DNA of 64,000 nt from Planctomycetota bacterium (GCA_038060895.1 JBBTCT010000022.1:192001-256000), one strand, 5' to 3'; counted from the stretch's first letter, positions 1 to 9,803 are shown. The notes: generated by a model from the letters alone, not told the origin. Program-made: numbers and translations.

Positions 1-34
1 GGATTCGAAGCGCTTCGCGACGGCGGTCGAGCAA

Positions 35-2746
35 ATGTGTGCGGGCGAAGGCTCATTGGCGGAGACGCCCGTTCCCACGACCCGCACTCCGGCGCCGCGC
101 CCTTCGCAGGCCGGAAATCCAACGATTCTCGTCGCGCTGAAGCAGAAGCTGGGAGTTGCCGGGACCACTCCTGAAGTCCCCCACAGCGAAACGGGGGCCG
201 ATCGCTTTTCACTGCGCGCGGACTCGCCCTTAGGACCCGAACACGAAAAGCTCAACGCCGTGATGACCGAGGTCGTTGGCACGACGAACTACTACAGCCC
301 GGATTTCAGGAAGCTCGCGTCAGGACGCGCCGTGCTCGACACCAGTCGACCCGAACGCGGCCGGATGCTCTTGGCTGGAGCCGAGCGTCGCATCGGCGTC
401 CTCCTTGCTCCGGCGGCCGCGTTGAACGAGCCTGCCGTCTGGCAATCGCGCTATGCGGCCGCCGCCACAGTTTCTGCCCTGCGGCACTCTCCCGTGGACC
501 TCGATCGCGCGCAGCTGTTCGATTTTCTTCTCTACCTGTCCGCGCTTCAGGGACGCGAGATTCTGAACTGGGCGGAAGACTTCCCACGATTCCTGACGCA
601 GTTGGAGAGCGAGTCGGCGAGGGATCCGCTGACCGAGGGCGAAAGATACGTGCTCTTCCTCTGGCGTGCATGCCTCATGTCGGGGCCCCCGCTCGGGACG
701 TCGTCTCAGGAAATTGCGAAGCTCACGGCCCTCATTGGCGATGGCGCGATGTTCTTTCTCGTTCCGGGCGAAGCCTGGAGCGACGCTTTGAACACCTCGC
801 TGACGGAATTGCCGGCGCGTGGACGCGCCGCATGGAAGGATCTCCTCGTGCACGCTTTGACGGCCACCGCGTCCAGACCTTCCGAAAAGTGGTTGAAGAC
901 GGGGCGAAAGCTGATCGAAGGGGTCGGAGCCGAAACTGCGCGCGACTTTCTCTCAGCCTGGCTCGCACTCGTCCAGAAGGGCCAGACTATCAGGAAGCCG
1001 GGCGCGGGAGACGTCATCCACGAAGAGAACGCGACCTGCCTGCGCGGCTTGCTGTGGCTTGTCCCGCTTCTTCTTCGCCGGGACGACCTGGCGCGGACTG
1101 TCTCCTCCGTCGCGCTTTCCGCATATCGAAAGATCCCGGGCGTCGGTCCCCGCGCAGTAAAAGTGGGAAACGCCGCTGTTTACGCCCTTTCCGAGCTCGG
1201 CTCGACGGACGCCGTCGGGCAGCTCGCCATGCTAAAGGTGCGTGTGAAGTTCGGAACCGCACAAAAGGAGATCGAGAAAGCCTTCGATGCTTCGGCACAA
1301 GCGCTCGGCTTGCCACGTGATCAGATTGAAGAAATGGGAGTTCCGTCCTACGGGCTTGAAGAAGTGGGGCGGCTCAAGGAATCGATCGGGCAGTACCAGG
1401 CCGAGCTCCTGGTGACGGGGAGCGACGCCGAGCTGAAGTGGTCGGACGCAGCTGGAAAGGCGCTCAAATCAGTGCCCGCTGCATTGAAGAAAGAGCACGG
1501 GGAAGAGTTAAAGGAACTTCAGCAGTCGCTGAAAGACATCCAGGCAATGCTGCCGGCTCAGCGCGACCGGATCGACGCTCTCTTTCTCTCGCAGAAATCA
1601 TGGCCGCTCGGGGCATGGCGCGAACGCTATCTGGACCACCCGCTGGTCGGCTCGATCTCGCGGCGCCTCATCTGGTGCGTCGACGGCGCGCCCGCACTGT
1701 TCCTGGACGGAACTGCATCCGATGTTCACGGGAAGTCATTCCGCGCTTCGGAAGGGGCGACGATCACCCTTTGGCACCCCGTCGGCCGGAGTGTCGTCGA
1801 GATAACGTCCTGGAGGCGCCGCCTCGAGTCGCTCGGAGTCACTCAGCCCTTCAAGCAGGCCCATCGCGAGATCTACCTGCTGACCGACGCGGAGCTGCGC
1901 ACGAGGACCTATTCCAATCGCTTCGCGGCCCACATCCTCCGGCAGCACCAGTTCAACGCTCTCTGTGCGGCTCGCGGCTGGAAGAACAAGCTGCGCCTCA
2001 TGGTGGACGACACTTACCCACCTGCGACTCGCGACCTGCCCCAGTGGGGGTTGCGAGTGGAGTTCTGGATCGAAGGCGTCGGCACCGAGTACGGCGGGGA
2101 CACGAACGAGTCCGGGGTCTACCTGCGCGTCGCCACGGATCAAGTGCGCTTCTACCGCAGAGAAACCGCCGAGAGCCGCGCCCATGCTGGCGGCGGCGGC
2201 TATGCAGCGAACGCCGGCGGGCCGGCGCACGGCAATGACATCGAACCACTGACTCTCGACCTCATTCCGCCGCTGGTCTTTTCAGAGAGCATGCGCGATG
2301 TTGACTTGTTTGTCGGCGTCGGCTCCGTCGGAAACGACCCCACCTGGCAGGATGGCGGTCCTCAGGGTGCCTTCCGCGCCTACTGGCAGAGTTACTCGTT
2401 TGGCGAGCTCTCCGCGAGCGCGGCGACGCGGCGGGAGGTGCTTCAGCGTCTCGTCCCGCGCCTCAAGATCGCCGACCGATGCTCCTTCGCGGACCGCTTC
2501 CTCATCGTGCGTGGTGAGAAGCGCACGTACAAAATCCACCTGGGCTCGGGAAACATCCTGATGGAACCGAATGACCAGTACCTCTGCATTGTTCCGGACC
2601 AGCGAGCTCGCTCGGCCGAAGAGAGCCTGTACCTCCCATTCGAGGGTGATTCCGTGCTCTCCATCATCATTAGCAAGGCGCTCCTTCTCGCCGCTGACTC
2701 GAAGATCAAGGATCCCACGATCGTGACGCAGATCGAGAAGGTCTGA
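35..2746 (+). CDS. DUF4132 domain-containing protein (probably 5'-truncated by the window edge)
   Basis: Motifs YLDHPLV, QPFKQAHREIY, FSESMRDVDLFV and YKIHLGSGNILM are typical of DUF4132 proteins; the frame is open back to position 2. Confidence 0.85.
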   Translation: MCAGEGSLAETPVPTTRTPAPRPSQAGNPTILVALKQKLGVAGTTPEVPHSETGADRFSLRADSPLGPEHEKLNAVMTEVVGTTNYYSPDFRKLASGRAVLDTSRPERGRMLLAGAERRIGVLLAPAAALNEPAVWQSRYAAAATVSALRHSPVDLDRAQLFDFLLYLSALQGREILNWAEDFPRFLTQLESESARDPLTEGERYVLFLWRACLMSGPPLGTSSQEIAKLTALIGDGAMFFLVPGEAWSDALNTSLTELPARGRAAWKDLLVHALTATASRPSEKWLKTGRKLIEGVGAETARDFLSAWLALVQKGQTIRKPGAGDVIHEENATCLRGLLWLVPLLLRRDDLARTVSSVALSAYRKIPGVGPRAVKVGNAAVYALSELGSTDAVGQLAMLKVRVKFGTAQKEIEKAFDASAQALGLPRDQIEEMGVPSYGLEEVGRLKESIGQYQAELLVTGSDAELKWSDAAGKALKSVPAALKKEHGEELKELQQSLKDIQAMLPAQRDRIDALFLSQKSWPLGAWRERYLDHPLVGSISRRLIWCVDGAPALFLDGTASDVHGKSFRASEGATITLWHPVGRSVVEITSWRRRLESLGVTQPFKQAHREIYLLTDAELRTRTYSNRFAAHILRQHQFNALCAARGWKNKLRLMVDDTYPPATRDLPQWGLRVEFWIEGVGTEYGGDTNESGVYLRVATDQVRFYRRETAESRAHAGGGGYAANAGGPAHGNDIEPLTLDLIPPLVFSESMRDVDLFVGVGSVGNDPTWQDGGPQGAFRAYWQSYSFGELSASAATRREVLQRLVPRLKIADRCSFADRFLIVRGEKRTYKIHLGSGNILMEPNDQYLCIVPDQRARSAEESLYLPFEGDSVLSIIISKALLLAADSKIKDPTIVTQIEKV

Positions 2747-3134
2747 GAGGCCCCGGACCCTGCGCGCTTAAGGCAGTCTCGGAATCTCGCCGTGCCGGAC
2801 GGAAGTAACTGCATCGGATAACCGAGCCCAGACCGGCGAGTTCTTCGTTGCTTGAAAAGGGCTCCCCGATCAGAACTCGAACTGATTGCGCGAGCATTTC
2901 GCGATGATGGCGCTTCATGCATCGAAGCTGTCAAGGCGCCGCGTCCACGGGACAGGGCCTACTCGTGCGCTCAGCGGAAAGTTCGGATTTCATCCAGACT
3001 GGTGACCAGACTGGATACGAATACGAACTATGGCCGAGATGGCGAAGGGCCTCCAGTTCAGCTAACTGAAGCCAGCGGCGGAAGTTGCATCAATTTCTGC
3101 CTGCGACAGCTGATAGTTCGTATTTCATCCAAAG

Positions 3135-3207
3135 TGCCCCCCGCAGGATTCGAACCTGCACAAGACCGGTTTTGAATCGGTCGCCTCTGCCGTTGGGCTA
3201 CGAGGGC
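3135..3207 (-). tRNA. trnL: tRNA-Leu(CAA), short variable loop
   Basis: Cloverleaf; anticodon loop TT-CAA-AA; T-loop TTCGAAT; A73. Confidence 0.85.
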
Positions 3208-3219
3208 CTGCGAATCAAA

Positions 3220-3290
3220 AGCTCCCGATGGGAATCGAACCCACACCCTCCTGCTTACGAGGCAGGTGCTCTCCTTTGAGCTACAAGAGC
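3220..3290 (-). tRNA. trnT: tRNA-Thr(CGT)
   Basis: Stem CCTGC/GCAGG, loop CT-CGT-AA; T-loop TTCGATT. Confidence 0.9.
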
Positions 3291-3293
3291 GGA

Positions 3294-3364
3294 TGCGCTC
3301 GTCAGGACTCGAACCTGCATCGGCCGGTTATCGACCGGCTGCTCTACCGCTGAGCTACGGGCGC
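3294..3364 (-). tRNA. trnI: tRNA-Ile(GAT), C33
   Basis: Stem GCCGG/CCGGC, loop TC-GAT-AA; single mismatches in the acceptor and T stems. Confidence 0.8.
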
Positions 3365-3367
3365 GCA

Positions 3368-3438
3368 AGCCTCTCGAGGGGGACGATCCCTCTTCTCCTG
3401 CCTGGGAAGCAGGCGTTCCACCGTTAAACCAGAGAGGC
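3368..3438 (-). tRNA. trnG: tRNA-Gly(CCC), atypical T-loop
   Basis: Perfect acceptor stem, loop TT-CCC-AG, U73; T-loop ATCGTCC. Confidence 0.75.
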
Positions 3439-3442
3439 GAAG

Positions 3443-3514
3443 TGCTCTCGGCAGGAATCGAACCTGCGGTCTTCAGCATGTCGGGCTGCCGCTCTTCCGC
3501 TGAGCTACGAGAGC
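3443..3514 (-). tRNA. trnV: tRNA-Val(GAC), C33
   Basis: Loop CC-GAC-AT; acceptor GCTCTCG/CGAGAGC; A73. Confidence 0.85.
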
Positions 3515-3581
3515 CGTTCGACTCGCTTCGCTCGCTCACGGCGGAGCAGACGAGTTCGGTCGAATCGCGGGCAAAACCAGA

Positions 3582-3652
3582 TGGTCCCAGGAGGAGTTGA
3601 ACCTCCGTCGCCGGTATGTGAGACCGGCATTCTCCCGTTGAACTACGGGACC
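3582..3652 (-). tRNA. trnV: tRNA-Val(CAC)
   Basis: Stem CCGGT/ACCGG, loop CT-CAC-AT. Confidence 0.9.
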
Positions 3653-3654
3653 GA

Positions 3655-3727
3655 TGCTCGGGGGAGGATTCGAACCTCCACTGACCAGCTTCTGAGACTG
3701 GTGCCTCTGCCGTTGGGCTACGCGAGC
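3655..3727 (-). tRNA. trnL: tRNA-Leu(CAG), short variable loop
   Basis: Loop CT-CAG-AA; 5-nt variable region TCAGT; A73. Confidence 0.85.
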
Positions 3728-3856
3728 GTTGTGGTTGTCGCTGGGGACGACTGGATGTGGGCGGCCGTGCGGCGGAGGCGAAGGGTGCCCCGGCGCGCGC
3801 CTGGTTCATCAGCACTCTTGCGCCCGCAGCCTCCGACGCCGGGCGCCCACGTCCAG

Positions 3857-3932
3857 TCGGGATGGCTGGATTTGAACCAGCGATCTCCTCGTCCCGAACG
3901 AGGCGTGTTGAGCCAGGCTTCACTACATCCCG
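3857..3932 (-). tRNA. trnP: tRNA-Pro(CGG)
   Basis: C1-G72, A73, loop TT-CGG-GA. Confidence 0.9.
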
Positions 3933-3934
3933 GA

Positions 3935-4006
3935 AGCGACTGGTGGGACTCGAACCCACGTCGACCACCATGGCAAGGTGGCGCTCAGCCTCTGAGCCAC
4001 AGCCGC
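3935..4006 (-). tRNA. trnG: tRNA-Gly(GCC)
   Basis: Loop TT-GCC-AT, U73. Confidence 0.9.
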
Positions 4007-4020
4007 GTTTTGATTCAAGA

Positions 4021-4093
4021 AGCCCTCGGCGGGGATCGAACCCGCATCAGCTTGTTTGGAAGACAGGCGCCTTCGCCGTTCGGCCACGAGAGC
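4021..4093 (-). tRNA. trnG: tRNA-Gly(TCC)
   Basis: Loop CT-TCC-AA, U73. Confidence 0.85.
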
Positions 4094-4109
4094 GGAATTG
4101 TTGTAAGTG

Positions 4110-4185
4110 GGCCCTCGACGGGAGTCGAACCCGTCGTCTCCCTTCCTCATACGGAAGGGTGTCTCGCCGCTCGACTACGAGGACC
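4110..4185 (-). tRNA. Atypical tRNA: 8-bp acceptor (G-1:C73, His-like) and 20-nt anticodon arm; anticodon undetermined (possibly ATG)
   Basis: Acceptor GGTCCTCG/CGAGGGCC; normal D and T arms (TTCGACT); anticodon arm CCCTTCC-GTATGA-GGAAGGG. Confidence 0.7.
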
Positions 4186-4189
4186 GTTA

Positions 4190-4273
4190 TGGGTGCGGCA
4201 GGAGTTGAACCTGCTGAGCCCGCGAGGGCTGCTGGGTTACGGCCAGCTCAGTTTTCCGATTCCGTACACACCC
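4190..4273 (-). tRNA. trnY: tRNA-Tyr(GTA), C33, long variable arm
   Basis: Loop CC-GTA-AC; variable hairpin AGCCC-TCGC-GGGCT. Confidence 0.85.
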
Positions 4274-4320
4274 TGAGTTCGCGCGACGGGTCGGCGAGTC
4301 GCGCAATTGACGGTGGGCGC

Positions 4321-4457
4321 TTCGACTCGTGTCCGGGCGCTTCGCGCCCGGCACTCGCTCAGGGCATTCGCCTCGCCAGAGCCACCGTTCGCGGTCGGCT
4401 CCGCCATGAGCGAGCCCCCGTGAGAGGCGCGGTGCGCCTCTCACGGTGCGAGTCGAA
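4321..4457. repeat. REP-like palindromic repeat pair (TTCGACTCG...CTCGCTCA core)
   Basis: Inverted copies at 4321-4365 and 4403-4457; related copies at 3517-3542 and 5284-5339. Confidence 0.7.
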
Positions 4458-4529
4458 TGGAAGCGGCAGGGTTCGCACCTGCGTCGGCTCGTTTAGGAAA
4501 CGAGGGCCTGTCTACTCGGCCACACTTCC
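4458..4529 (-). tRNA. trnR: tRNA-Arg(CCT), A18/G55
   Basis: Loop TT-CCT-AA; D-loop AGTAGAC; T-loop TGCGAAC. Confidence 0.85.
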
Positions 4530-4531
4530 GA

Positions 4532-4602
4532 TGGGGACGGAGGGAGTTGAACCCGCATCACGAGGTTCGTAGTCTCGTGTCCTTCCGTTGGACGACGTCC
4601 CC
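4532..4602 (-). tRNA. trnR: tRNA-Arg(ACG)
   Basis: Loop CT-ACG-AA; A20 present. Confidence 0.85.
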
Positions 4603-4608
4603 GACTCA

Positions 4609-4681
4609 TGGTGAAGGGTGGGATCGAACCACCACATCCTGGTCTTCAGCCAGGCGCTCAGACCCTCTGAGCTACTTCACC
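4609..4681 (-). tRNA. trnF: tRNA-Phe(GAA)
   Basis: Perfect stems; loop CT-GAA-GA. Confidence 0.9.
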
Positions 4682-4686
4682 GCAAA

Positions 4687-4757
4687 TAGGCGCGGCGGGA
4701 ATCGAACCCGCTCTTTCAGGTTGAAGGCCTGGGTGCCTGCCATTAGCTGACGCGCCC
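4687..4757 (-). tRNA. trnE: tRNA-Glu(TTC), C33
   Basis: Loop CC-TTC-AA; T-loop TTCGATT. Confidence 0.8.
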
Positions 4758-4768
4758 GCACGATTGGA

Positions 4769-4841
4769 TGGGAGCGGAGGGATTCGAACCCTTCCTCGTC
4801 CGGGTTAAAAATCCGGTGCTCAGCCACTGAGCGACGCGCCC
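4769..4841 (-). tRNA. trnK: tRNA-Lys(TTT)
   Basis: Loop TT-TTT-AA; a few stem mismatches. Confidence 0.8.
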
Positions 4842-4849
4842 TTGCGCAA

Positions 4850-4921
4850 TAGAGTCGGTGGGACTTGAACCCACATAGGCCTGCTTAAGAGGCAGGAGCT
4901 CGGCCGTTGAGCGACGACTCT
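4850..4921 (-). tRNA. trnK: tRNA-Lys(CTT)
   Basis: Perfect stems; loop CT-CTT-AA. Confidence 0.9.
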
Positions 4922-4925
4922 GTAA

Positions 4926-4998
4926 TAGGGATGGAGGGATTCGAACCCTCGTCTCCAGGCTGAGAACCTGGCCGCCTTGGCCACTGGCCGACATCCCC
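4926..4998 (-). tRNA. trnE: tRNA-Glu(CTC)
   Basis: Loop TT-CTC-AG. Confidence 0.85.
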
Positions 4999-5009
4999 GG
5001 GCGTAGAAA

Positions 5010-5080
5010 CAGGGGGGGCTGGATTCGAACCAGCAGAACGAGTGTCAGAGGCTCGGGGGTTACCGTTACCCGACCCCCCT
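5010..5080 (-). tRNA. trnQ: tRNA-Gln(CTG)
   Basis: Loop CT-CTG-AC; G73. Confidence 0.85.
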
Positions 5081-5087
5081 CTTTTGA

Positions 5088-5158
5088 CAGAGGCGGAAGG
5101 AATCGCACCCTCATCACCGGACTTGGAAACCGGAGTCCTGCTGTTGGACGACGCCTCT
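5088..5158 (-). tRNA. trnW: tRNA-Trp(CCA), A18/G55
   Basis: Loop TT-CCA-AG; A1-U72, G73; T-loop TGCGATT. Confidence 0.85.
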
Positions 5159-5163
5159 ACGAA

Positions 5164-5235
5164 TGGAAGTGGTGGGAATCGAACCCACAGTCTCCTGCTT
5201 GCGGAGCAGGCGCCTTCCCGTTGGGCTACACCCCC
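5164..5235 (-). tRNA. trnA: tRNA-Ala(CGC), C33
   Basis: G3:U70 identity pair; loop TC-CGC-AA. Confidence 0.9.
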
Positions 5236-5276
5236 GAATGCAAGTCCTTCAACTGGTCAAAGCCTCCGTCCCGTCT

Positions 5277-5339
5277 CGGCTCCGCCATGAGCGAGCCCCC
5301 GTGAGAGGCGCGAAGCGCCTCACATGGGGGCGAGTCGAA
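5277..5339. repeat. REP-like repeat, near-identical to 4396-4457
   Basis: cggctccgccatgagcgagcccccgtgagaggcgc...gcgagtcgaa is shared by both copies. Confidence 0.8.
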
Positions 5340-5411
5340 TGGAAGCGGCGGGAATCGAACCCGCATGGGCCTGTCTGCCGGACAGGTGCCTTCCCGTTAG
5401 GCAACGCCCCC
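5340..5411 (-). tRNA. trnA: tRNA-Ala(GGC), C33
   Basis: G3:U70; loop CC-GGC-AG. Confidence 0.9.
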
Positions 5412-5546
5412 GACGTTTTCGTCGTTTTCCATTCCCGTGCGCGAGGATGTCGTGCGGCGCAGCGAGGAGGTGCGTCGGGCCCGCGCCGGCCATTTGGCGC
5501 GGAGTCCGGCGCGCTTCCTCGCGAAGCCGCACGACATCCTCGCGCA

Positions 5547-5638
5547 CGGGGAGTGGGGTTTTCTACCCCCGGGGGCCGCCTTGAGGGCGGCCCGCCTCGT
5601 TAGCAATGAGGTGCTTTAAGCCGCTCAGCCACCTCCCC
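5547..5638 (-). tRNA. trnS: tRNA-Ser(GCT), degenerate T-arm (possible pseudogene)
   Basis: Loop TT-GCT-AA, long variable hairpin; T-loop reads TAGAAAA. Confidence 0.7.
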
Positions 5639-5666
5639 GGATTTGCGCGATGGGATCGCGCATTGA

Positions 5667-5755
5667 AGGAAGGTGAAGGATTCGAACCTTCGTCCCCCTC
5701 GCGGGGGCTCCTGTTTTCGAGACAGGCGCGATAAGCCGGACTCTGCCAACCTTCC
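5667..5755 (-). tRNA. trnS: tRNA-Ser(CGA)
   Basis: Loop CT-CGA-AA, long variable arm. Confidence 0.9.
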
Positions 5756-5760
5756 GTGGA

Positions 5761-5833
5761 CAGGGGCACCAGGATTCGAACCTGGATCAACCTCCTTAAC
5801 AGGGAGGTGACTTACCGGTTAGCCCACACCCCT
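5761..5833 (-). tRNA. trnN: tRNA-Asn(GTT)
   Basis: Loop CT-GTT-AA; G73. Confidence 0.9.
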
Positions 5834-5950
5834 AACTTGCACGGGCCTTTCCGCTCGTGCCGCGTGCGGCGGAGCGAATCTGGACGCCGCGCCCGCGCCG
5901 GACTTTCGGCGCGGCGTGCGGCGTCCGGATTCGCGGAGCCGCATGCGGCA

Positions 5951-6024
5951 CGAGGGCGACGGGATTTGAACCCGTGATCTCCGCCGTGACAGGGCGGTGT
6001 CTTGAGCCTCTGGACGACGCCCCC
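5951..6024 (-). tRNA. trnD: tRNA-Asp(GTC)
   Basis: Loop CT-GTC-AC; G73. Confidence 0.92.
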
Positions 6025-6028
6025 AGAA

Positions 6029-6100
6029 TCGCGCCTGCAGGAATCGAACCTGCCTGCTCCTGGTTCCAGGCCAGGCGCGCAGCCACTGCGCCAAGACGCG
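6029..6100 (-). tRNA. trnP: tRNA-Pro(TGG), C33/A37
   Basis: C1-G72, A73; loop CC-TGG-AA. Confidence 0.85.
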
Positions 6101-6216
6101 AGGAATTGCTTTTTTGCCGGGCCGTTCCATTTGCGGAGGGGTGGGAGTCGAAGGAACGCGGAGTCGCGCGGCCGTTCGTGCGACTCCGCGTTCCTTCGAC
6201 TCCCACCCCTCCGCAA

Positions 6217-6290
6217 AGCGCGGAAGTGGATTCGAACCACTGCGCACCGGTTTTGCGGACCGAGCCGTTGAGCCACTCCGGCATCCGCGC
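6217..6290 (-). tRNA. trnC: tRNA-Cys(GCA), C33
   Basis: Loop CC-GCA-AA; U73. Confidence 0.85.
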
Positions 6291-6296
6291 GCTTGA

Positions 6297-6367
6297 TAGC
6301 GGGAAGGGGAATCGCACCCCTGTGTGCGGCTTATGAGACCGCCGATCAGCTACTGATCCATCCCGCA
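6297..6367 (-). tRNA. trnM: tRNA-Met(CAT), unpaired 1x72, A18/G55
   Basis: Loop CT-CAT-AA; T1xT72 mismatch; T-loop TGCGATT. Confidence 0.8.
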
Positions 6368-6567
6368 GGGATTTGAGGTGGGAGGTTGTTGATTTGCGAG
6401 GCGAGACGAACGGCCGCCTCGCCTCGCACATCAACAACCTCCCACCTCAAATCCCCGGTACGGCAATGACCGCACGAACAGGGGAGAAAAGAACCGGCCC
6501 GGGCGCGTCGCCGTGAGGGGGGGAGGGGCGGACGTCGGGGGAGGGCCATTGTTGCCCGGGCCGGGGA

Positions 6568-6640
6568 TGTGTCCGGCAGGAGTCGCACCTGCAACCTCCA
6601 GATTCGGAGACTGGGGCTCTTCTGGTTGAGCTACAGACAC
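6568..6640 (-). tRNA. trnR: tRNA-Arg(CCG), A18/G55
   Basis: Loop CT-CCG-AA; T-loop TGCGACT. Confidence 0.85.
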
Positions 6641-6789
6641 AGGGAAGAAGGGTCGTTTTGCCGTTCGCCAATTCGCGCTTCGGGATGATGAAGCGACGGG
6701 GTCGGGGCGAGCGGCCACACTTGAAGGCAAGCTGACCAGAGATTGTGAGCGAGCTCCGACTCCGTCGCTTCATCATCCCGAGGCGCGAA

Positions 6790-6860
6790 TTGGGGCGGCA
6801 CGACTCGAACGTGCACGGCGAGGTTCAAGGGCTCGCGGCCTACCTTTAGCTGACGCCCCA
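6790..6860 (-). tRNA. trnQ: tRNA-Gln(TTG), C33
   Basis: U1-A72; loop CC-TTG-AA. Confidence 0.85.
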
Positions 6861-6994
6861 GAAGTTTCGTTGCCGTCCTGAATGCAGGGGTGTGATCGAT
6901 CGATTGGCTTGTCGTTCGGCCCGGGCGGAGCCGGCCGTATGGCGGAGGTCGGGACGAACGACGAGCCAATCGATCGATCACACCCCTGCATTCA

Positions 6995-7067
6995 TCGGGG
7001 TTGAAGGAGTTGAACCTTCATCTGCGCATTGAGGGGGCGCCGTCCTCAGCCATTAGACGAAACCCCA
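6995..7067 (-). tRNA. trnE: tRNA-Glu(CTC), second copy, C33
   Basis: Loop CC-CTC-AA; T-loop TTCAACT. Confidence 0.75.
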
Positions 7068-7089
7068 GGAAGGCGAGGGCAGCAGAGAT

Positions 7090-7230
7090 TCAGAAAAACC
7101 GGCTCCCGATTCCCGGGTTGGGAATGGGATGACATGGAACCGGAAGCCGGTTCGGGAAGATCCGCCGGTTATCAAAGATCACTTCGCGCTGCGTCGGTTG
7201 ACCGCAACTTGCGCTTCCATCTCCTGGCAT
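7090..7230 (-). CDS. Putative 46-aa leader peptide (MPGDGSASCGQ...GSRFF)
   Basis: AGGAGG 6 nt upstream of the ATG; the ORF runs through a terminator-like hairpin and stops just after its U-tract. Confidence 0.4.
   Translation of the reverse strand: MPGDGSASCGQPTQREVIFDNRRIFPNRLPVPCHPIPNPGIGSRFF
7094..7150 (-). terminator. Intrinsic terminator or attenuator hairpin inside the tRNA array
   Basis: 15-bp stem CCGGCTTCCGGTTCC/GGAATCGGGAGCCGG followed by TTTTT. Confidence 0.55.
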
Positions 7231-7245
7231 GACGTTCCTCCTGCA

Positions 7246-7316
7246 AGGGACCGGTCGGGGTTGCACCGACGTCTCCCGGGCCACAGCCGGGCGGTCTGCT
7301 GTTGAGCTACAGTCCC
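7246..7316 (-). tRNA. trnH: tRNA-His(GTG) without G-1:C73, A18/G55
   Basis: Loop CT-GTG-GC; position -1 is C and N73 is T; T-loop TGCAACC. Confidence 0.8.
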
Positions 7317-7375
7317 GTGGCGGCGCCGGTCTGGAAGGTTGATGAGTGAAGCGGCGAAAAGGTTCGCGCGTGTGG

Positions 7376-7409
7376 AAAACGAAAACGCCGCCGAGTGATC
7401 GGCGGCGTT
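7376..7409 (-). terminator. Intrinsic terminator downstream of the small secreted-peptide gene
   Basis: AACGCCGCCGA-TCAC-TCGGCGGCGTT followed by TTCGTTTT. Confidence 0.7.
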
Positions 7410-7435
7410 CTGTTTGATCCTGGTCTGGCCGGCGG

Positions 7436-7663
7436 CTACATGCACTCGTTGCCCATTCCGACGTCTTCCGAACCGGCGCCGGATTCCGAGTCCATGCCGC
7501 CTTCGGTCGCGTCGCCGCCGGAGTGATCGTCCGTGCCGGGGAGCGGGCCGTCGCCGGTGCCGCCACCGTCGTAACCCGGCGCGGGCGGGGGAGGGCAGGC
7601 GAACGTCAGGACCGGGCTGGACAGGACTGCGAGGGTCACGAGCGCGATGATGAAGAGTTTCAT
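7436..7663 (-). CDS. Small secreted acidic Gly/Asp/Pro-rich peptide (75 aa)
   Basis: RBS AAGGAG, signal peptide MKLFIIALVTLAVLSSPVLTFA, own terminator. Confidence 0.65.
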   Translation of the reverse strand: MKLFIIALVTLAVLSSPVLTFACPPPPAPGYDGGGTGDGPLPGTDDHSGGDATEGGMDSESGAGSEDVGMGNECM

Positions 7664-7919
7664 GGTTATCTCCTTGATTTCTTTGTTTGAAGGCGTTTGT
7701 TTGTTTCGTACGACGGAAGTATGTATAGCAACGGGGGTGCCACTCGTTCCGCCTGCCGCCAACATCGACATAAAGCGTGTATTAGTAGTGTCTTGCGAGC
7801 GAATCACGATTTCCATGGCGCTCGAATTGAGCCATTAGCGTACGAAAACAAGACGATAACGCCGTACGCGAGTATGGGATTCGATCCCAAGCGGGTGCCA
7901 GCCTCTGCCAGCCACGCGC

Positions 7920-7987: not shown

Positions 7988-8512
7988 ATGAATCTCACCA
8001 CCACCGAAAAGAAGTTCATCCTCCACTGGGGCGAAATGGGAACCCGCTGGGGGATCAACCGCACCGTCGCCCAGGTCCACGCCCTTCTCTACATCTCGGG
8101 CCGCCCCGTCCCCGCCGATGAAATCGCCGAGACGCTCTCCGTCGCGCGCTCCAACGTCTCCACCTCGCTCCGCGAACTCCAGGGCTGGGGCCTCGCCAAG
8201 GTGACCCACGTCCTCGGCGACCGCAGGGATCACTTCGAGACCTTCCAGGACGTCTGGGCCATGTTCAAGCTCGTGGCGCAGGAGCGGAAGCGCCGCGAGA
8301 TTGACCCGACGCTGGCGATGCTGAAAGAGGCGATCGAGCAGGCGAACAAGGATGGCGAGAAGGCGGCCAGGGAGAGACTCGAGCACATGCTGGAGTTCTT
8401 CGAGACGCTGACGGCCACCTTCGACGAGTTCGTGAAGATGTCGCCGGGGGCGCTTCGGAAGGTCGTGAAGTATGGCGGGAAGCTGCAGAAGCTGCTGGGG
8501 GTCGGGACTTAG
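7988..8512 (+). CDS. GbsR/MarR family transcriptional regulator
   Basis: FILHWGEMGTRWGINRTVAQVHALL...ARSNVSTSLRELQGWGL signature. Confidence 0.9.
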   Translation: MNLTTTEKKFILHWGEMGTRWGINRTVAQVHALLYISGRPVPADEIAETLSVARSNVSTSLRELQGWGLAKVTHVLGDRRDHFETFQDVWAMFKLVAQERKRREIDPTLAMLKEAIEQANKDGEKAARERLEHMLEFFETLTATFDEFVKMSPGALRKVVKYGGKLQKLLGVGT

Positions 8513-8564
8513 GCCGGTCTTTTTTTTCGCGCTGAACATTTCAAAACTTACAGAAAGAACGGTT

Positions 8565-9803
8565 ATGACAGCCCACAGGCGATCTGCGTGGTTCTTCACC
8601 GAAGCGGCTCCGGCCCCCAGGGCCTGGGTCTGCTACGACGCGGAGTGCGCCCTGTGCACCGCCGGCGCCCGCCGCTTCGCCCCCCTCCTCGCCCGCCGCG
8701 GCATCGAAACCGTGCCGCTTCAGGCCGAGTGGGTCCGCGCGCGCCTCGGCCTGCGCCCCGACCAGATGGCGTTCATTGCTGCCGACGGGCAGACGTTCGG
8801 CGGGGCGGAAGCCGTGGCGCGCGTCTGCCGCGAGATCGGGTGGGCGTGGCCCGCGTGGGCGGCGAGCCGCGTGCCCGGAGTCGGCGCCCTCATGCGCGCC
8901 GGGTATCGCTGGGTCTCCGCGCGCCGGCATTGCGCGGGCGGGGCGTGCCGGATCGAGAAGCGGTCCGACGCCGTGACGTGGGAGCCGCTGGTGGTCCTGC
9001 CCGCGGCGGTGTTCGCGCTTCGCGAAGCGCTTCCCGCGTGGCTGTGGATGTGGGCGCTGTGCGCGGCGTTCTTCGCGGGATTCAAGTGGGTGACGCTCCG
9101 GAAAGCGCCGCCCGCCCGGCTCGGTGCGAGTCTCGCGTACGTCTTCACGTGGCCCGGCATGGACGCGAAGCGCTTCCTCCACGGCCGCGCGAAATCCGCG
9201 CCACGCACTTCCGAGTGGGCCGCGGCCGCGGTCAAGGTCGCCGTCGGTGTGGCGCTGTTCTTCTGCGTCCCTCGCTTCGTCGCCGACCCGCTCCTCGCCG
9301 CGTGGATCGCCATGGCCGGCCTGATCTTCGCCGTCCACTGCGGCGCCTTTCACCTCGCCAGCTGCGCCTGGCGCGCCGCCGGCCGCGACGCCGACCCCGT
9401 CATGAACGCGCCGCTCCTCGCCACGTCCCCCTCCGGTTTCTGGAGCGGCCGCTGGAACCGCGGCTTCAGCGACCTCGCCCGCGACCTCGTCGTGCGGCCC
9501 CTCCGCCGCGCCCCCGGCCTCGCGCTCTTCACCGTCTTCGCCCTCAGCGGCCTCGTCCACGAACTCGTCATCAGCGTCCCCGCCCGCGGCGGCTGGGGCC
9601 TGCCCACCGCGTACTTCGTCCTGCAAGGCGCCGCCGTCGCGCTCGAGCGCAGCCGGCTGGGGAAGCGGCTCGGTCTCGATCGCGGCCTGACCGGAAGGCT
9701 CTTCGCGTGGACCGTCGTCGCAGGCCCCGCGTTCTTCCTCTTCCACCCCCCGTTCGTGCACGGCGTCGTGCTGCCGATGCTTCGAGCGGCGGGGGTGAAG
9801 TGA
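8565..9803 (+). CDS. DUF393 (DCC-type) thiol-disulfide domain fused to an MBOAT/wax-synthase-like acyltransferase
   Basis: YDAECALC motif; FWSGRWN and FALSGLVHE (catalytic His). Confidence 0.85.
   Translation: MTAHRRSAWFFTEAAPAPRAWVCYDAECALCTAGARRFAPLLARRGIETVPLQAEWVRARLGLRPDQMAFIAADGQTFGGAEAVARVCREIGWAWPAWAASRVPGVGALMRAGYRWVSARRHCAGGACRIEKRSDAVTWEPLVVLPAAVFALREALPAWLWMWALCAAFFAGFKWVTLRKAPPARLGASLAYVFTWPGMDAKRFLHGRAKSAPRTSEWAAAAVKVAVGVALFFCVPRFVADPLLAAWIAMAGLIFAVHCGAFHLASCAWRAAGRDADPVMNAPLLATSPSGFWSGRWNRGFSDLARDLVVRPLRRAPGLALFTVFALSGLVHELVISVPARGGWGLPTAYFVLQGAAVALERSRLGKRLGLDRGLTGRLFAWTVVAGPAFFLFHPPFVHGVVLPMLRAAGVK

Follow-up and report, generated by a model that had tools for sequence, protein, structure and literature searches.

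The left part of a 64,000-nucleotide stretch of DNA from a Planctomycetota bacterium (C22:192001-256000 of draft genome G000; the whole stretch is referred to as the window) harbors a long array of tRNA genes. Using ARAGORN, 34 co-oriented tRNA genes were identified on the minus strand between positions 3134 and 7316, which corresponds to 4,183 bases and 8.1 genes per kb (Table 1) and agrees with the 34 co-oriented cloverleaves in 4.2 kb that an earlier note on this DNA had described. The gathering score of the Rfam family RF00005 (cut-off 29 bits) was reached by 30 of the 34 genes when the window was scanned and by 32 when the genome itself was scanned. The gene for Ser(GCU) remained under the cut-off with 25.2 bits, and the gene at 4109-4184, referred to as element X, gave no match to RF00005 at E ≤ 1. 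A 35th member, a Leu(GAG) gene of 75 nt, is located at C22:182028-182102, about 13 kb past the left edge of the window; with this detached gene counted in, the array comprises 35 members. The locus is a real, maintained long tRNA array of the kind called L-array or tRNA array unit.

By the definition of Tran et al. 2016, at least 20 tRNA genes at a density of at least 2 per kb form such a unit; the same authors mention a few arrays in Planctomycetes (PMC4758250), and L-arrays have been reported in seven phyla including Planctomycetes (PMC8421152). With 34 genes at the density given above the locus lies well within the former definition, and its single orientation, co-transcribable spacing, supernumerary character and redundancy of isodecoders over new anticodons are those of an L-array. 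It is therefore of a known kind that surveys have already recorded in this phylum. What makes it a variant of its own is the conserved alternative tRNA design described below (C33, A18 with G55, short-arm tRNA-Leu), the spacers punctuated by hairpins, the vertical inheritance throughout a genus and the genes carried as cargo at the 3' end.

The draft genome comprises 5.4 Mb in 47 contigs with 66% G+C and is 86.5% complete. The contig of the array is 462 kb long with a G+C content matching that of the genome, and the remainder of the window consists of ordinary chromosomal genes (MiaB-like, PntAB, kinases, sulfatases, QueA). Outside the array 42-44 credible scattered tRNA genes were found, and since these housekeeping genes exist the array is an extra set. 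Twenty-nine of its 33 three-base anticodons are also present outside the array, while CAC, CCG, GGC and GUU occur in this assembly in the array only. Housekeeping genes with these four anticodons may be located in the missing 13.5% of the assembly, because a housekeeping Asn(GUU) was found in six of seven relatives. The possibility that the array gene is the sole tRNA-Asn was considered and rejected, as six of the seven relatives contain a housekeeping-type Asn anticodon arm, which is missing only from G000 and from G004 (82% complete).

In comparison with the housekeeping tRNAs of the same amino acid, the array tRNAs showed 48-78% identity, so that the divergence pointed out in the earlier note was confirmed, and the anticodon stems were unlike the housekeeping ones in every pair compared. 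The identity elements that the note had listed are all present: both Ala tRNAs carry G3:U70 and both Pro tRNAs C1-G72, U73 is found in Cys and the three Gly tRNAs, and Asp, Asn and Trp have G73. Anticodons and identity elements are conserved across the eight species in which the array was found. None of the 35 array genes (Leu(GAG) counted) encodes CCA at positions 74-76, again as described; however, with 38 of 42 housekeeping tRNAs likewise without CCA (4/42 encode it), its absence is the norm of this genome and does not serve to distinguish the array, for which the note had used it. Position 74 is a T in 29/35 array and 34/42 housekeeping tRNAs, and because T74 dominates both, the two sets share their 3' context.

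All 20 amino-acid classes are named by the array anticodons. The Met gene is nevertheless initiator-like, with a U1xU72 mismatch (in 6/7 orthologs) and A11:U24, and its nearest housekeeping relative is an initiator-type tRNA; no elongator-type Met was found among the array genes. Assuming simple wobble, the set reads 47 of the 61 sense codons and leaves 14 unread, the chief gaps being ACC, CCC and TCC. The codons read account for 93.2% of the 738,467 codons in 1,235 long open reading frames (ORFs). The description as a complete backup set thus holds insofar as the set is supernumerary and stands apart from the scattered housekeeping genes, whereas "complete" was overstated in view of the missing elongator Met, the unread codons, one member that does not decode and one that looks damaged.

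The member that does not decode is element X, the neighbor of Tyr on one side and of Gly(UCC) on the other. Many compensatory changes have preserved its acceptor, D and T arms, and its "anticodon" arm is extended and bulged with a loop of 6-8 nt (8 nt in G000) that differs in length and sequence from genome to genome. Orthologs were found in four genomes (L012:12903-12985, L014:4381-4462, L015:10303-10384 and L019:534-615) and are not present in G002 or G006; the ARAGORN label varies by genome ("???", Asn, Gln or Gly|Arg). Element X is tRNA-like and is no normal decoder. As a separate observation, the Lys(UUU) gene of G000 (4769-4841) is 89-95% similar to the Lys(CUU) genes of G003, G004, G005 and G006, which suggests an anticodon switch from C34 to U34 among the array Lys paralogs.

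DNA searches detected collinear pieces of the array with 67-97% identity in all seven other genomes of the same uncultured genus, and matches to single tRNAs only in a further 33 genomes, of which 4 belong to the same order and 29 to the same class. In all eight genomes of the genus the array occupies one and the same chromosomal site. Among 400 further genomes sampled from the phylum, three members of the genus gave 16-20 matches each and the other 397 at most three. Megablast of the array against phage and plasmid collections returned no close match, a more distant search of these collections returned single tRNAs only (≤3% of the array covered), and a 30-nt pattern from the array Asn tRNA had 0 matches in viral contigs; no donor of the array was found in the collections searched. 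The MarR-family gene divergent from tRNA-His is syntenic in 7/7 relatives with 73-94% protein identity (tblastn), and the far flank is common to G000, G001, G002, G003 and G004. Leu(CAA) followed by Leu(GAG) closes the array in all seven relatives, G001 being rearranged locally at this end. Between 16 and 36 genes were recovered per genome. The simplest history to be read from these comparisons would be that the array was acquired once, ahead of the diversification of the genus, and passed on vertically from then on, and we consider it fairly probable that the array was present at the same chromosomal site in the common ancestor of this groundwater Planctomycetota genus and has been inherited vertically since.

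To characterize how the genes have evolved, 35 ortholog groups from the eight genomes were aligned and the cloverleaf of G000 was mapped on each (a misassigned Phe row of G007 in the Glu group was left out). Base pairing was found in 95.9% of 4,778 stem cells. Each cell stands for a sequence rather than for an independent event, and the genomes share ancestry; the two measures that count pairs lie far above both controls. Changes on both sides occurred in 108 of 724 pairs, compared to 41.5±4.8 (maximum 55) in 200 shuffles and 5-10 pairs in a slid control with the 3' partners moved by 1-3 columns. Where a changed cell had a canonical reference pair, 316 of 370 kept the pair, 206 by changes on both sides and 110 by a change on one side. 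An independent tool, applied to a natural alignment of the segment from Tyr to Leu(CAA) (11 tRNAs, 6 genomes, element X left out), found 96.8% of cells paired and 37 pairs changed on both sides, with 12.8±2.7 in shuffles (0/500 as high) and 0-5 in the slid control. Substitutions across the related arrays, for which the earlier note had raised randomness with respect to base pairing as a test of its reading, are strongly non-random. Because the stems evolve by compensatory change above the level of shuffles, the alignments indicate that selection keeps the cloverleaves and that the array genes are maintained; the exceptions are the variable loop of element X and Ser(GCU) in G000.

The array departs from standard tRNAs at the near-universal positions U33, G18 and U55, with C33 in 11 members and G55 together with A18 in five, and these departures are conserved and not random. 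C33 was found in 11 of 34 seven-nucleotide anticodon loops of the array, compared to 1/42 in the housekeeping tRNAs, and concerns Leu(GAG), Ile, Val(GAC), Tyr, Glu(UUC), Ala(CGC), Ala(GGC), Pro(UGG), Cys, Gln(UUG) and copy 2 of Glu(CUC). In the orthologs it is present without exception in Ile (8/8), Val(GAC) (7/7), Tyr (7/7), Ala(GGC) (5/5) and Pro(UGG) (5/5), and in most cases in Glu(UUC) (6/7), Ala(CGC) (6/7), Leu(GAG) (6/8) and Cys (5/7). A T-loop starting with TGC, that is G55, occurs in exactly five families (Arg(CCU), Trp, Met, Arg(CCG) and His) and in none of the 42 housekeeping tRNAs. In G000 the D-loop of all five also carries AG instead of GG (A18), a replacement seen in 0/30 of the others, and nearly all orthologs behave likewise. 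In standard tRNA G18 contacts U55, and on that basis A18 with G55 can be regarded as a tertiary covariation from G18-U55 to A18-G55.

A third departure concerns the three Leu tRNAs, which are 73-75 nt long with a variable region of 4-5 nt, a 3-bp D stem, a large D-loop and A73; the short-arm form was seen in every genome having these genes. A 3-bp D stem with a large D-loop is typical of tRNA-Leu. The alternative architecture proposed in the earlier note therefore exists, of a sort, in the form of these three features. They are unmentioned in the searched passages of PMC8421152, where "U33" and "G18" occur 0 times, and in those of the Mycobacterium array paper, and a literature search for short-arm bacterial tRNA-Leu returned nothing on arrays. 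Two side observations concern C33: the sole housekeeping tRNA with this nucleotide is a Val(GAC) (G000:C7:152758-152831, loop TCGACAC), and the sole one in the cluster of phage Myrna (L124) is a Val(GAC) as well, with the loop CCGACAT of the array copy. C33 may thus be a wider habit of this isoacceptor.

Upstream of tRNA-His, about 55 nt are conserved in all genomes and no sigma-70-type site was found on the array strand. This block is a candidate promoter or leader, possibly served by an alternative sigma factor, and the terminator-like hairpin at 7384-7409 would shield the array from upstream transcription. The palindrome TTCTGTCTRTACAGAA on the promoter of marR is likely the operator for autoregulation by MarR. 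The intergenic region between marR and the array varies from 128 to 759 nt across genomes, and the part of it that separates marR from the conserved block can be next to nothing or reach several hundred bases; because the palindrome lies on marR's own promoter and the distance to the block varies, control by MarR is doubtful and a role as repressor of the array appears unlikely. Further observations in this region concern a stretch of ~360 nt (7382-7742) between tRNA-His and marR, which includes the terminator-like hairpin and is 87% identical to G000:C9:115949-116301 (Pfam assigned no family to the ORFs overlapping it), and GCCTTCGCCA-like tandem repeats, which are located between marR and the conserved block in G004 (L012:8974-9070) and G003 (L016:9559-9640) and do not occur in G000. 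There is an overlap of marR with the gene at 8472-9803, which encodes a fused DCC1-like/MBOAT_2 protein.

The spacers between the tRNA genes measure 1-197 nt in G000 and are bimodal in every genome, being either 0-30 nt or about 100-330 nt long. Except for a weak site at 7078-7063, no terminator-like sites were found in them on the array strand. The long spacers fold as very stable, near-perfect hairpins of about 100-130 nt, six of which have arms of 37-45 nt with 86-98% complementarity in G000, and the spacers that bear hairpins differ from genome to genome. Orthologous hairpins have their stems preserved through compensatory change (Table 1). No other copies of the hairpins were found in the genome. 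An Rfam family or a dispersed mobile element was considered as their identity and rejected, as there were only sub-threshold generic matches to microRNA hairpins and no copies. They probably serve as punctuation for processing or stability, the alternative being selfish palindromic insertions.

Two further repeats were observed in the spacers. Downstream of both Arg(CCU) and Ala(GGC) comes a trailer repeat of 80-140 nt that contains a short GC hairpin, and a copy with 75-84% identity lies 3' of the gene for transfer-messenger RNA (tmRNA; G000:C19:25457-25600); in G002, too, a stretch matches (G002:C17:9325-9500). The trailer may represent a shared module for 3' processing or termination. The spacer between Val(GAC) and Val(CAC) (3515-3581) opens with an element of 31 nt, which recurs 16 times elsewhere in the genome as scattered copies (85-97% identical) and looks like a REP-type repeat.

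At the 3' end of the array, an insertion of ~12.9 kb with four genes separates Leu(CAA) from Leu(GAG) in G000. Three of its genes are located left of the window (G000:C22:182399-189729) and encode a KAP-family NTPase (PADLOC PifA model, 1e-84), Hen1 (Hen1_L 4e-115 and a methyltransferase domain) and Pnkp (PNKP_ligase 2.6e-168 with kinase and phosphatase domains). The earlier note had recognized no RtcB, Ro60 or HNH gene next to the array in the window; the absence of an adjoining RNA-repair gene holds inside the window only, the Pnkp/Hen1 and PifA-like genes being located 5-13 kb past the left edge. RtcB is encoded elsewhere in G000, and no HNH gene was present among the ORFs scanned. Apart from the insertion in G000, the distance from the array end to the conserved flank ranges from 63 nt to 3.8 kb, and because it varies among genomes the 3' end appears as a variable cargo site.

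Pnkp occurs in two of the eight genomes of the genus, both times at the 3' end of the array and convergent on it: a distance of 5.4 kb separates it from Leu(CAA) in G000, and in G006 the Pnkp/Hen1 genes follow Leu(GAG) after ~0.1-0.2 kb. The Hen1 and Pnkp genes next to the array carry the full domain sets of the bacterial Pnkp/Hen1 system, and the two Pnkp proteins are 93% identical. The usual loci of this system are not beside tRNA arrays. When 80 Pnkp loci were inspected, an array was found within 10 kb of only one, the one from this genus, and the other 79 had at most one tRNA gene, so that a general link between Pnkp/Hen1 and tRNA arrays was rejected. The association may derive from one shared insertion; a functional link of Pnkp/Hen1 to the array is a conjecture.

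Table 1. Features of the tRNA array and its surroundings, with positions counted from the first letter of the window (bits: score with RF00005)
Feature	Position	Strand	Details
Whole array	3134..7316	-	order His ... Leu(CAA); ARAGORN, Rfam; same order in 7 relatives
tRNA-His(GUG), first gene	7246..7316	-	48.3 bits; T-loop TGCAA (G55), D-loop AACAGCA (A18); U73, G-1 not encoded
tRNA-Glu(CUC) copy 2	6995..7067	-	46.8 bits; C33
tRNA-Gln(UUG)	6790..6860	-	38.1 bits; A73; C33 in G000 only (1/6 orthologs)
tRNA-Arg(CCG)	6568..6640	-	58.3 bits; G55 with A18
tRNA-Met(CAU), initiator-like	6297..6367	-	50.2 bits; U1xU72, A11:U24; G55 with A18
tRNA-Cys(GCA)	6217..6290	-	50.4 bits; U73; C33
tRNA-Pro(UGG)	6029..6100	-	55 bits; C1-G72; C33
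tRNA-Asp(GUC)	5951..6024	-	58.7 bits; G73
tRNA-Asn(GUU)	5761..5833	-	58.4 bits; G73; genus-wide identity 92-97%
tRNA-Ser(CGA), long variable arm	5667..5755	-	48.7 bits; U73
tRNA-Ser(GCU), probably damaged in G000	5546..5639	-	25.2 bits; T-loop TAGAAAA, TTCGA in orthologs
tRNA-Ala(GGC)	5340..5411	-	49.7 bits; G3:U70; C33
tRNA-Ala(CGC)	5164..5235	-	60.9 bits; G3:U70; C33
tRNA-Trp(CCA)	5088..5158	-	47.7 bits; G73; G55 with A18
tRNA-Gln(CUG)	5010..5080	-	50.1 bits; G73
tRNA-Glu(CUC) copy 1	4926..4998	-	55.3 bits
tRNA-Lys(CUU)	4850..4921	-	57.8 bits
tRNA-Lys(UUU)	4769..4841	-	46 bits; nearest to Lys(CUU) of four relatives
tRNA-Glu(UUC)	4687..4757	-	43.6 bits; C33
tRNA-Phe(GAA)	4609..4681	-	68.7 bits
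tRNA-Arg(ACG)	4532..4602	-	53.9 bits
tRNA-Arg(CCU)	4458..4529	-	49.5 bits; G55 with A18
tRNA-Tyr(GUA), long variable arm	4190..4273	-	38.4 bits; C33 in 7/7 genomes
tRNA-like element X	4109..4184	-	ARAGORN anticodon 'tatg'; no RF00005 match
tRNA-Gly(UCC)	4021..4093	-	53.8 bits; U73
tRNA-Gly(GCC)	3935..4006	-	59.7 bits; U73
tRNA-Pro(CGG)	3857..3932	-	61.4 bits; C1-G72
tRNA-Leu(CAG), 73 nt, short variable region	3655..3727	-	53.5 bits; 3-bp D stem; A73
tRNA-Val(CAC)	3582..3652	-	63.5 bits
tRNA-Val(GAC)	3443..3514	-	64.7 bits; C33
tRNA-Gly(CCC)	3368..3438	-	49.2 bits; U73; T-loop ATCGT (A54) in 4/5 genomes, ATCGA in G006
tRNA-Ile(GAU)	3294..3364	-	56.6 bits; C33 in 8/8 genomes
tRNA-Thr(CGU)	3220..3290	-	68.4 bits
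tRNA-Leu(CAA), 73 nt, short variable region, last gene in window	3135..3207	-	43.2 bits; A73
Conserved block, candidate promoter or leader	7322..7375	-	invariant GAACC 7361-7365, CCGGCGCC 7322-7329; 7-genome alignment, motif also in G006
Terminator-like GC-rich hairpin with T-run, upstream of conserved block	7384..7409	.	also in G002 and G005
marR promoter TTGACA-17-TATATT with palindrome TTCTGTCTRTACAGAA	7920..7963	+	palindrome hardly varies among 8 genomes
MarR-family regulator gene, divergent from array	7988..8512	+	Pfam MarR_2 8.8e-9
Long spacer hairpin	6879..6994	-	45-nt arms, 96% complementary
Long spacer hairpin	6668..6793	-	41-nt arms, 93% complementary
Long spacer hairpin, abuts tRNA-Met 5' end	6368..6455	-	41-nt arms, 95% complementary
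Long spacer hairpin, abuts tRNA-Cys 3' end	6130..6217	-	41-nt arms, 98% complementary
Long spacer hairpin, Asp-Asn	5854..5954	-	compensatory change in 14/37 predicted pairs, 5 genomes
Long spacer hairpin, Ser(GCU)-Ala(GGC)	5434..5550	-	same spacer in three relatives with hairpin of other sequence
Spacer hairpin, Pro(CGG)-Leu(CAG)	3728..3855	-	29 predicted pairs, kept in 4 genomes; compensatory change in 3/29
3'-trailer repeat after Arg(CCU)	4360..4446	-	further copies at 5241-5327 and after tmRNA gene (C19)
3'-trailer repeat, second copy, after Ala(GGC)	5241..5327	-	repeat comparison
DUF4132/DUF7737 protein gene, 3' part	1..2746	+	Pfam; convergent on array; last gene of 12.9-kb insertion

The stretch is contained in DNA runs from groundwater, and in the aquifer metatranscriptome run X17 contigs were found that match without difference at 3516-3820 (Val(CAC), Leu(CAG) and spacers), at 4813-4974 and at two pieces of the marR operon. 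As a sign of transcription these contigs are a weak hint. We propose that one long precursor would be transcribed from the conserved non-sigma-70 promoter block ~45 nt upstream of tRNA-His, with the terminator-like hairpin insulating this block from upstream transcription. RNase P and a 3' endonuclease would cut the precursor into single tRNAs, and the CCA-adding enzyme of the genome would add CCA, as it does for nearly all tRNAs of the organism; the long spacer hairpins might act as punctuation in these steps, for example as RNase III sites. A gene of the CCA-adding family and an RNase III gene are present in the genome. Because the identity elements are retained, host synthetases would be expected to charge the array tRNAs, which would then supplement the housekeeping pool for 47 of the 61 sense codons, equal to ~93% of the codons used.

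By analogy to the Anabaena sp. PCC 7120 trn operon, such a supplement is probably called upon under certain conditions, as a standby for times at which the usual tRNA pool or translation itself suffers. The Anabaena array is not expressed unless translation is impaired (PMC8421152), shares its regulation with rtcB (PMC8421152, PMC10272220) and has TrcR as its repressor (PMC10272220). Both arrays are long, co-oriented, closely spaced and supernumerary to a scattered set, both mostly add isodecoders and include some members that resemble pseudogenes, and RNA repair is encoded nearby, in some genomes here and as the co-regulated rtcB in Anabaena. In contrast to the Anabaena array, which is on a megaplasmid, the present one is chromosomal and vertically inherited through the genus; its repair genes are Pnkp/Hen1 in two of eight genomes and not RtcB, with no HNH gene in the ORFs scanned, and its neighboring regulator belongs to the MarR family, whereas TrcR is an RHH protein. 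The parallel between Pnkp/Hen1 and the co-regulation of rtcB is suggestive but not evidence. On balance, use of the array as a conditional reserve set as in Anabaena appears to us the likelier reading of the locus.

Several observations weigh against such a reserve. Between orthologs, identity amounts to 81-95% for the array tRNAs Tyr, Gly(UCC), Glu(UUC) and Lys(UUU), compared to 95-100% for housekeeping Tyr, Gly(UCC) and Glu(UUC) in the same genomes, and this faster divergence fits a weaker constraint. Ser(GCU) looks damaged in G000, and element X is no decoder. Members have been lost, as seen in G007 with 16 genes on the contig and in G006, where ARAGORN found no His, Trp, Gly(UCC) or Gln(UUG), and vertical inheritance throughout a genus departs from the view of L-arrays as patchily distributed and spread by horizontal transfer. 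C33 and G55 at near-universal positions could lower the efficiency of translation. LeuRS is reported to contact the variable arm, A73, the 15-48 pair and G19-C56 (PMC12360207), and because the variable arm is missing from the short-arm Leu tRNAs, their charging with leucine must be regarded as uncertain. The promoter was assigned from conservation alone, and RNase Z gave no match at the family cut-off in the 86.5%-complete assembly. The X17 contigs possibly stem from carried-over DNA, are no denser on the array than in the marR region and do not show RNA ends or levels.

An alternative, possible if unlikely, is that the array is kept specifically as a set of tRNAs that escape enzymes which cleave or rely on standard tRNA features, for instance the anticodon nucleases of competitors, of abortive infection or of toxin-antitoxin systems. 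The escape changes would then be C33, A18 with G55 and the divergence of the anticodon stems, and the repair and defense genes would have been recruited to the 3' end for the same reason. The frequencies of C33 and G55 in the array and their conservation in orthologs are in line with this, as are the anticodon stems, which differ from the housekeeping ones in every compared pair, and the fast change of sequence with kept structure, as an arms race would give; relaxed constraint, however, explains the faster evolution equally well. Escape by altered tRNAs has been proposed for phage tRNAs (PMC10264068), and mycobacterial arrays have been termed a putative anti-defense system (PMC12803027). Mycobacterial and actinobacteriophage clusters resemble the array in being dense and covering most amino acids (PMC5966550, PMC10264068), and their anticodon-loop differences from the host have been proposed as nuclease escape; the Myrna cluster even contains, in the depositors' annotation, a short tRNA-Leu of 68 nt like the short Leu tRNAs of the array. 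These clusters share only single related tRNAs with the array (2-3% cover), and no phage genes surround the array. In the two phage clusters compared, C33 and G55 are rare or absent (C33 in 1/29 and 0/10, G55 in 0/39), which sets the array apart and speaks for this alternative. For the single toxin on which data were found, the gamma-toxin of K. lactis, U33C had no effect on cleavage (PMC2275089). The position of Pnkp/Hen1 at the array end in precisely the two genomes that have the pair, with a PifA-like gene in the same insertion in G000, points in the direction of nuclease escape, but it is weakened by the single array among 80 Pnkp loci, by the possibility of one shared insertion and by the six genomes of the genus that have no Pnkp.

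A bolder version of this idea, which we offer tentatively and hold to be doubtful, regards the array as a re-engineered "shadow" tRNA pool, selected through C33 in about a third of its members, a rebuilt elbow contact (A18-G55 for G18-U55) in five and the short-arm form of all three Leu tRNAs to remain chargeable and decodable and yet be invisible to enzymes that recognize standard tRNAs, such as anticodon nucleases, other toxins directed at tRNA or effectors that depend on modification; the hairpin-punctuated operon and the RNA-repair and abortive-infection cargo at its 3' end would together form one translation-rescue locus.

That the array is a slowly decaying relic, acquired once, barely expressed, of little use and cheap to keep, with its structure kept by weak selection or chance, seems quite improbable. 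It would account for the faster divergence relative to housekeeping tRNAs, for a gene content that varies from 16 to 36 between genomes, for the damaged Ser(GCU) and the non-decoding element X, for the departures from universal nucleotides and for the palindromes inserted between genes at places that differ by genome, and L-arrays have long been described as cryptic (PMC8421152). Unselected decay, however, would break pairs and not compensate them, and the 95.9% of paired stem cells, the 108 compensatory pairs well above both controls, the anticodons and identity elements conserved across eight species, the perfect covariation of A18 and G55 and the conserved upstream block all argue against it.

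That the array is carried by a prophage, an integrative element or a plasmid, or lies on a misbinned contig, is very improbable: tRNA clusters are common in large phages and integrative elements (PMC4758250, PMC6409571), the 3' end is a variable cargo site and few ORFs between 1 and ~15 kb show the third-position G+C typical of the genome, but the contig is long and has the G+C of the genome, no integrase, phage or plasmid family was found among 70 ORFs scanned with Pfam (window and ~20 kb upstream), FtsK, MiaB-like, PntAB and QueA genes and not phage genes surround the array, synteny with other members of the genus extends over both flanks, and no related array was found in the phage, plasmid and viral-contig collections. 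The array thereby also differs from tRNA array units such as that of the Acidithiobacillus integrative element (PMC4758250), with which it shares the redundancy of core isoacceptors: no mobile element is recognizable, and its gene order was matched, in the collections searched, only in its own genus.

Long tRNA arrays are widespread, and a function has been shown for one, that of Anabaena. At the present locus a single array is available in eight natural copies that have diverged, in which covariation indicates upkeep over the lifetime of a genus, and positions that are usually invariant (U33, G18, U55) as well as the variable arm of tRNA-Leu change in a conserved and coordinated way. If these changes alter the sensitivity to tRNA nucleases or modification enzymes, the array would represent a natural alternative tRNA design kept as insurance, with the A18-G55 pair as a ready-made case of tertiary covariation in tRNA; if not, it is a well-documented ordinary L-array in an under-studied phylum.

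Apart from the array and outside the window, the same contig contains two adjoining, unusually long tRNA-like genes, a 94-nt Trp(CCA) and a 97-nt Pro(UGG) (G000:C22:273515-273721), which scored 48.8 and 55.5 bits with Rfam.

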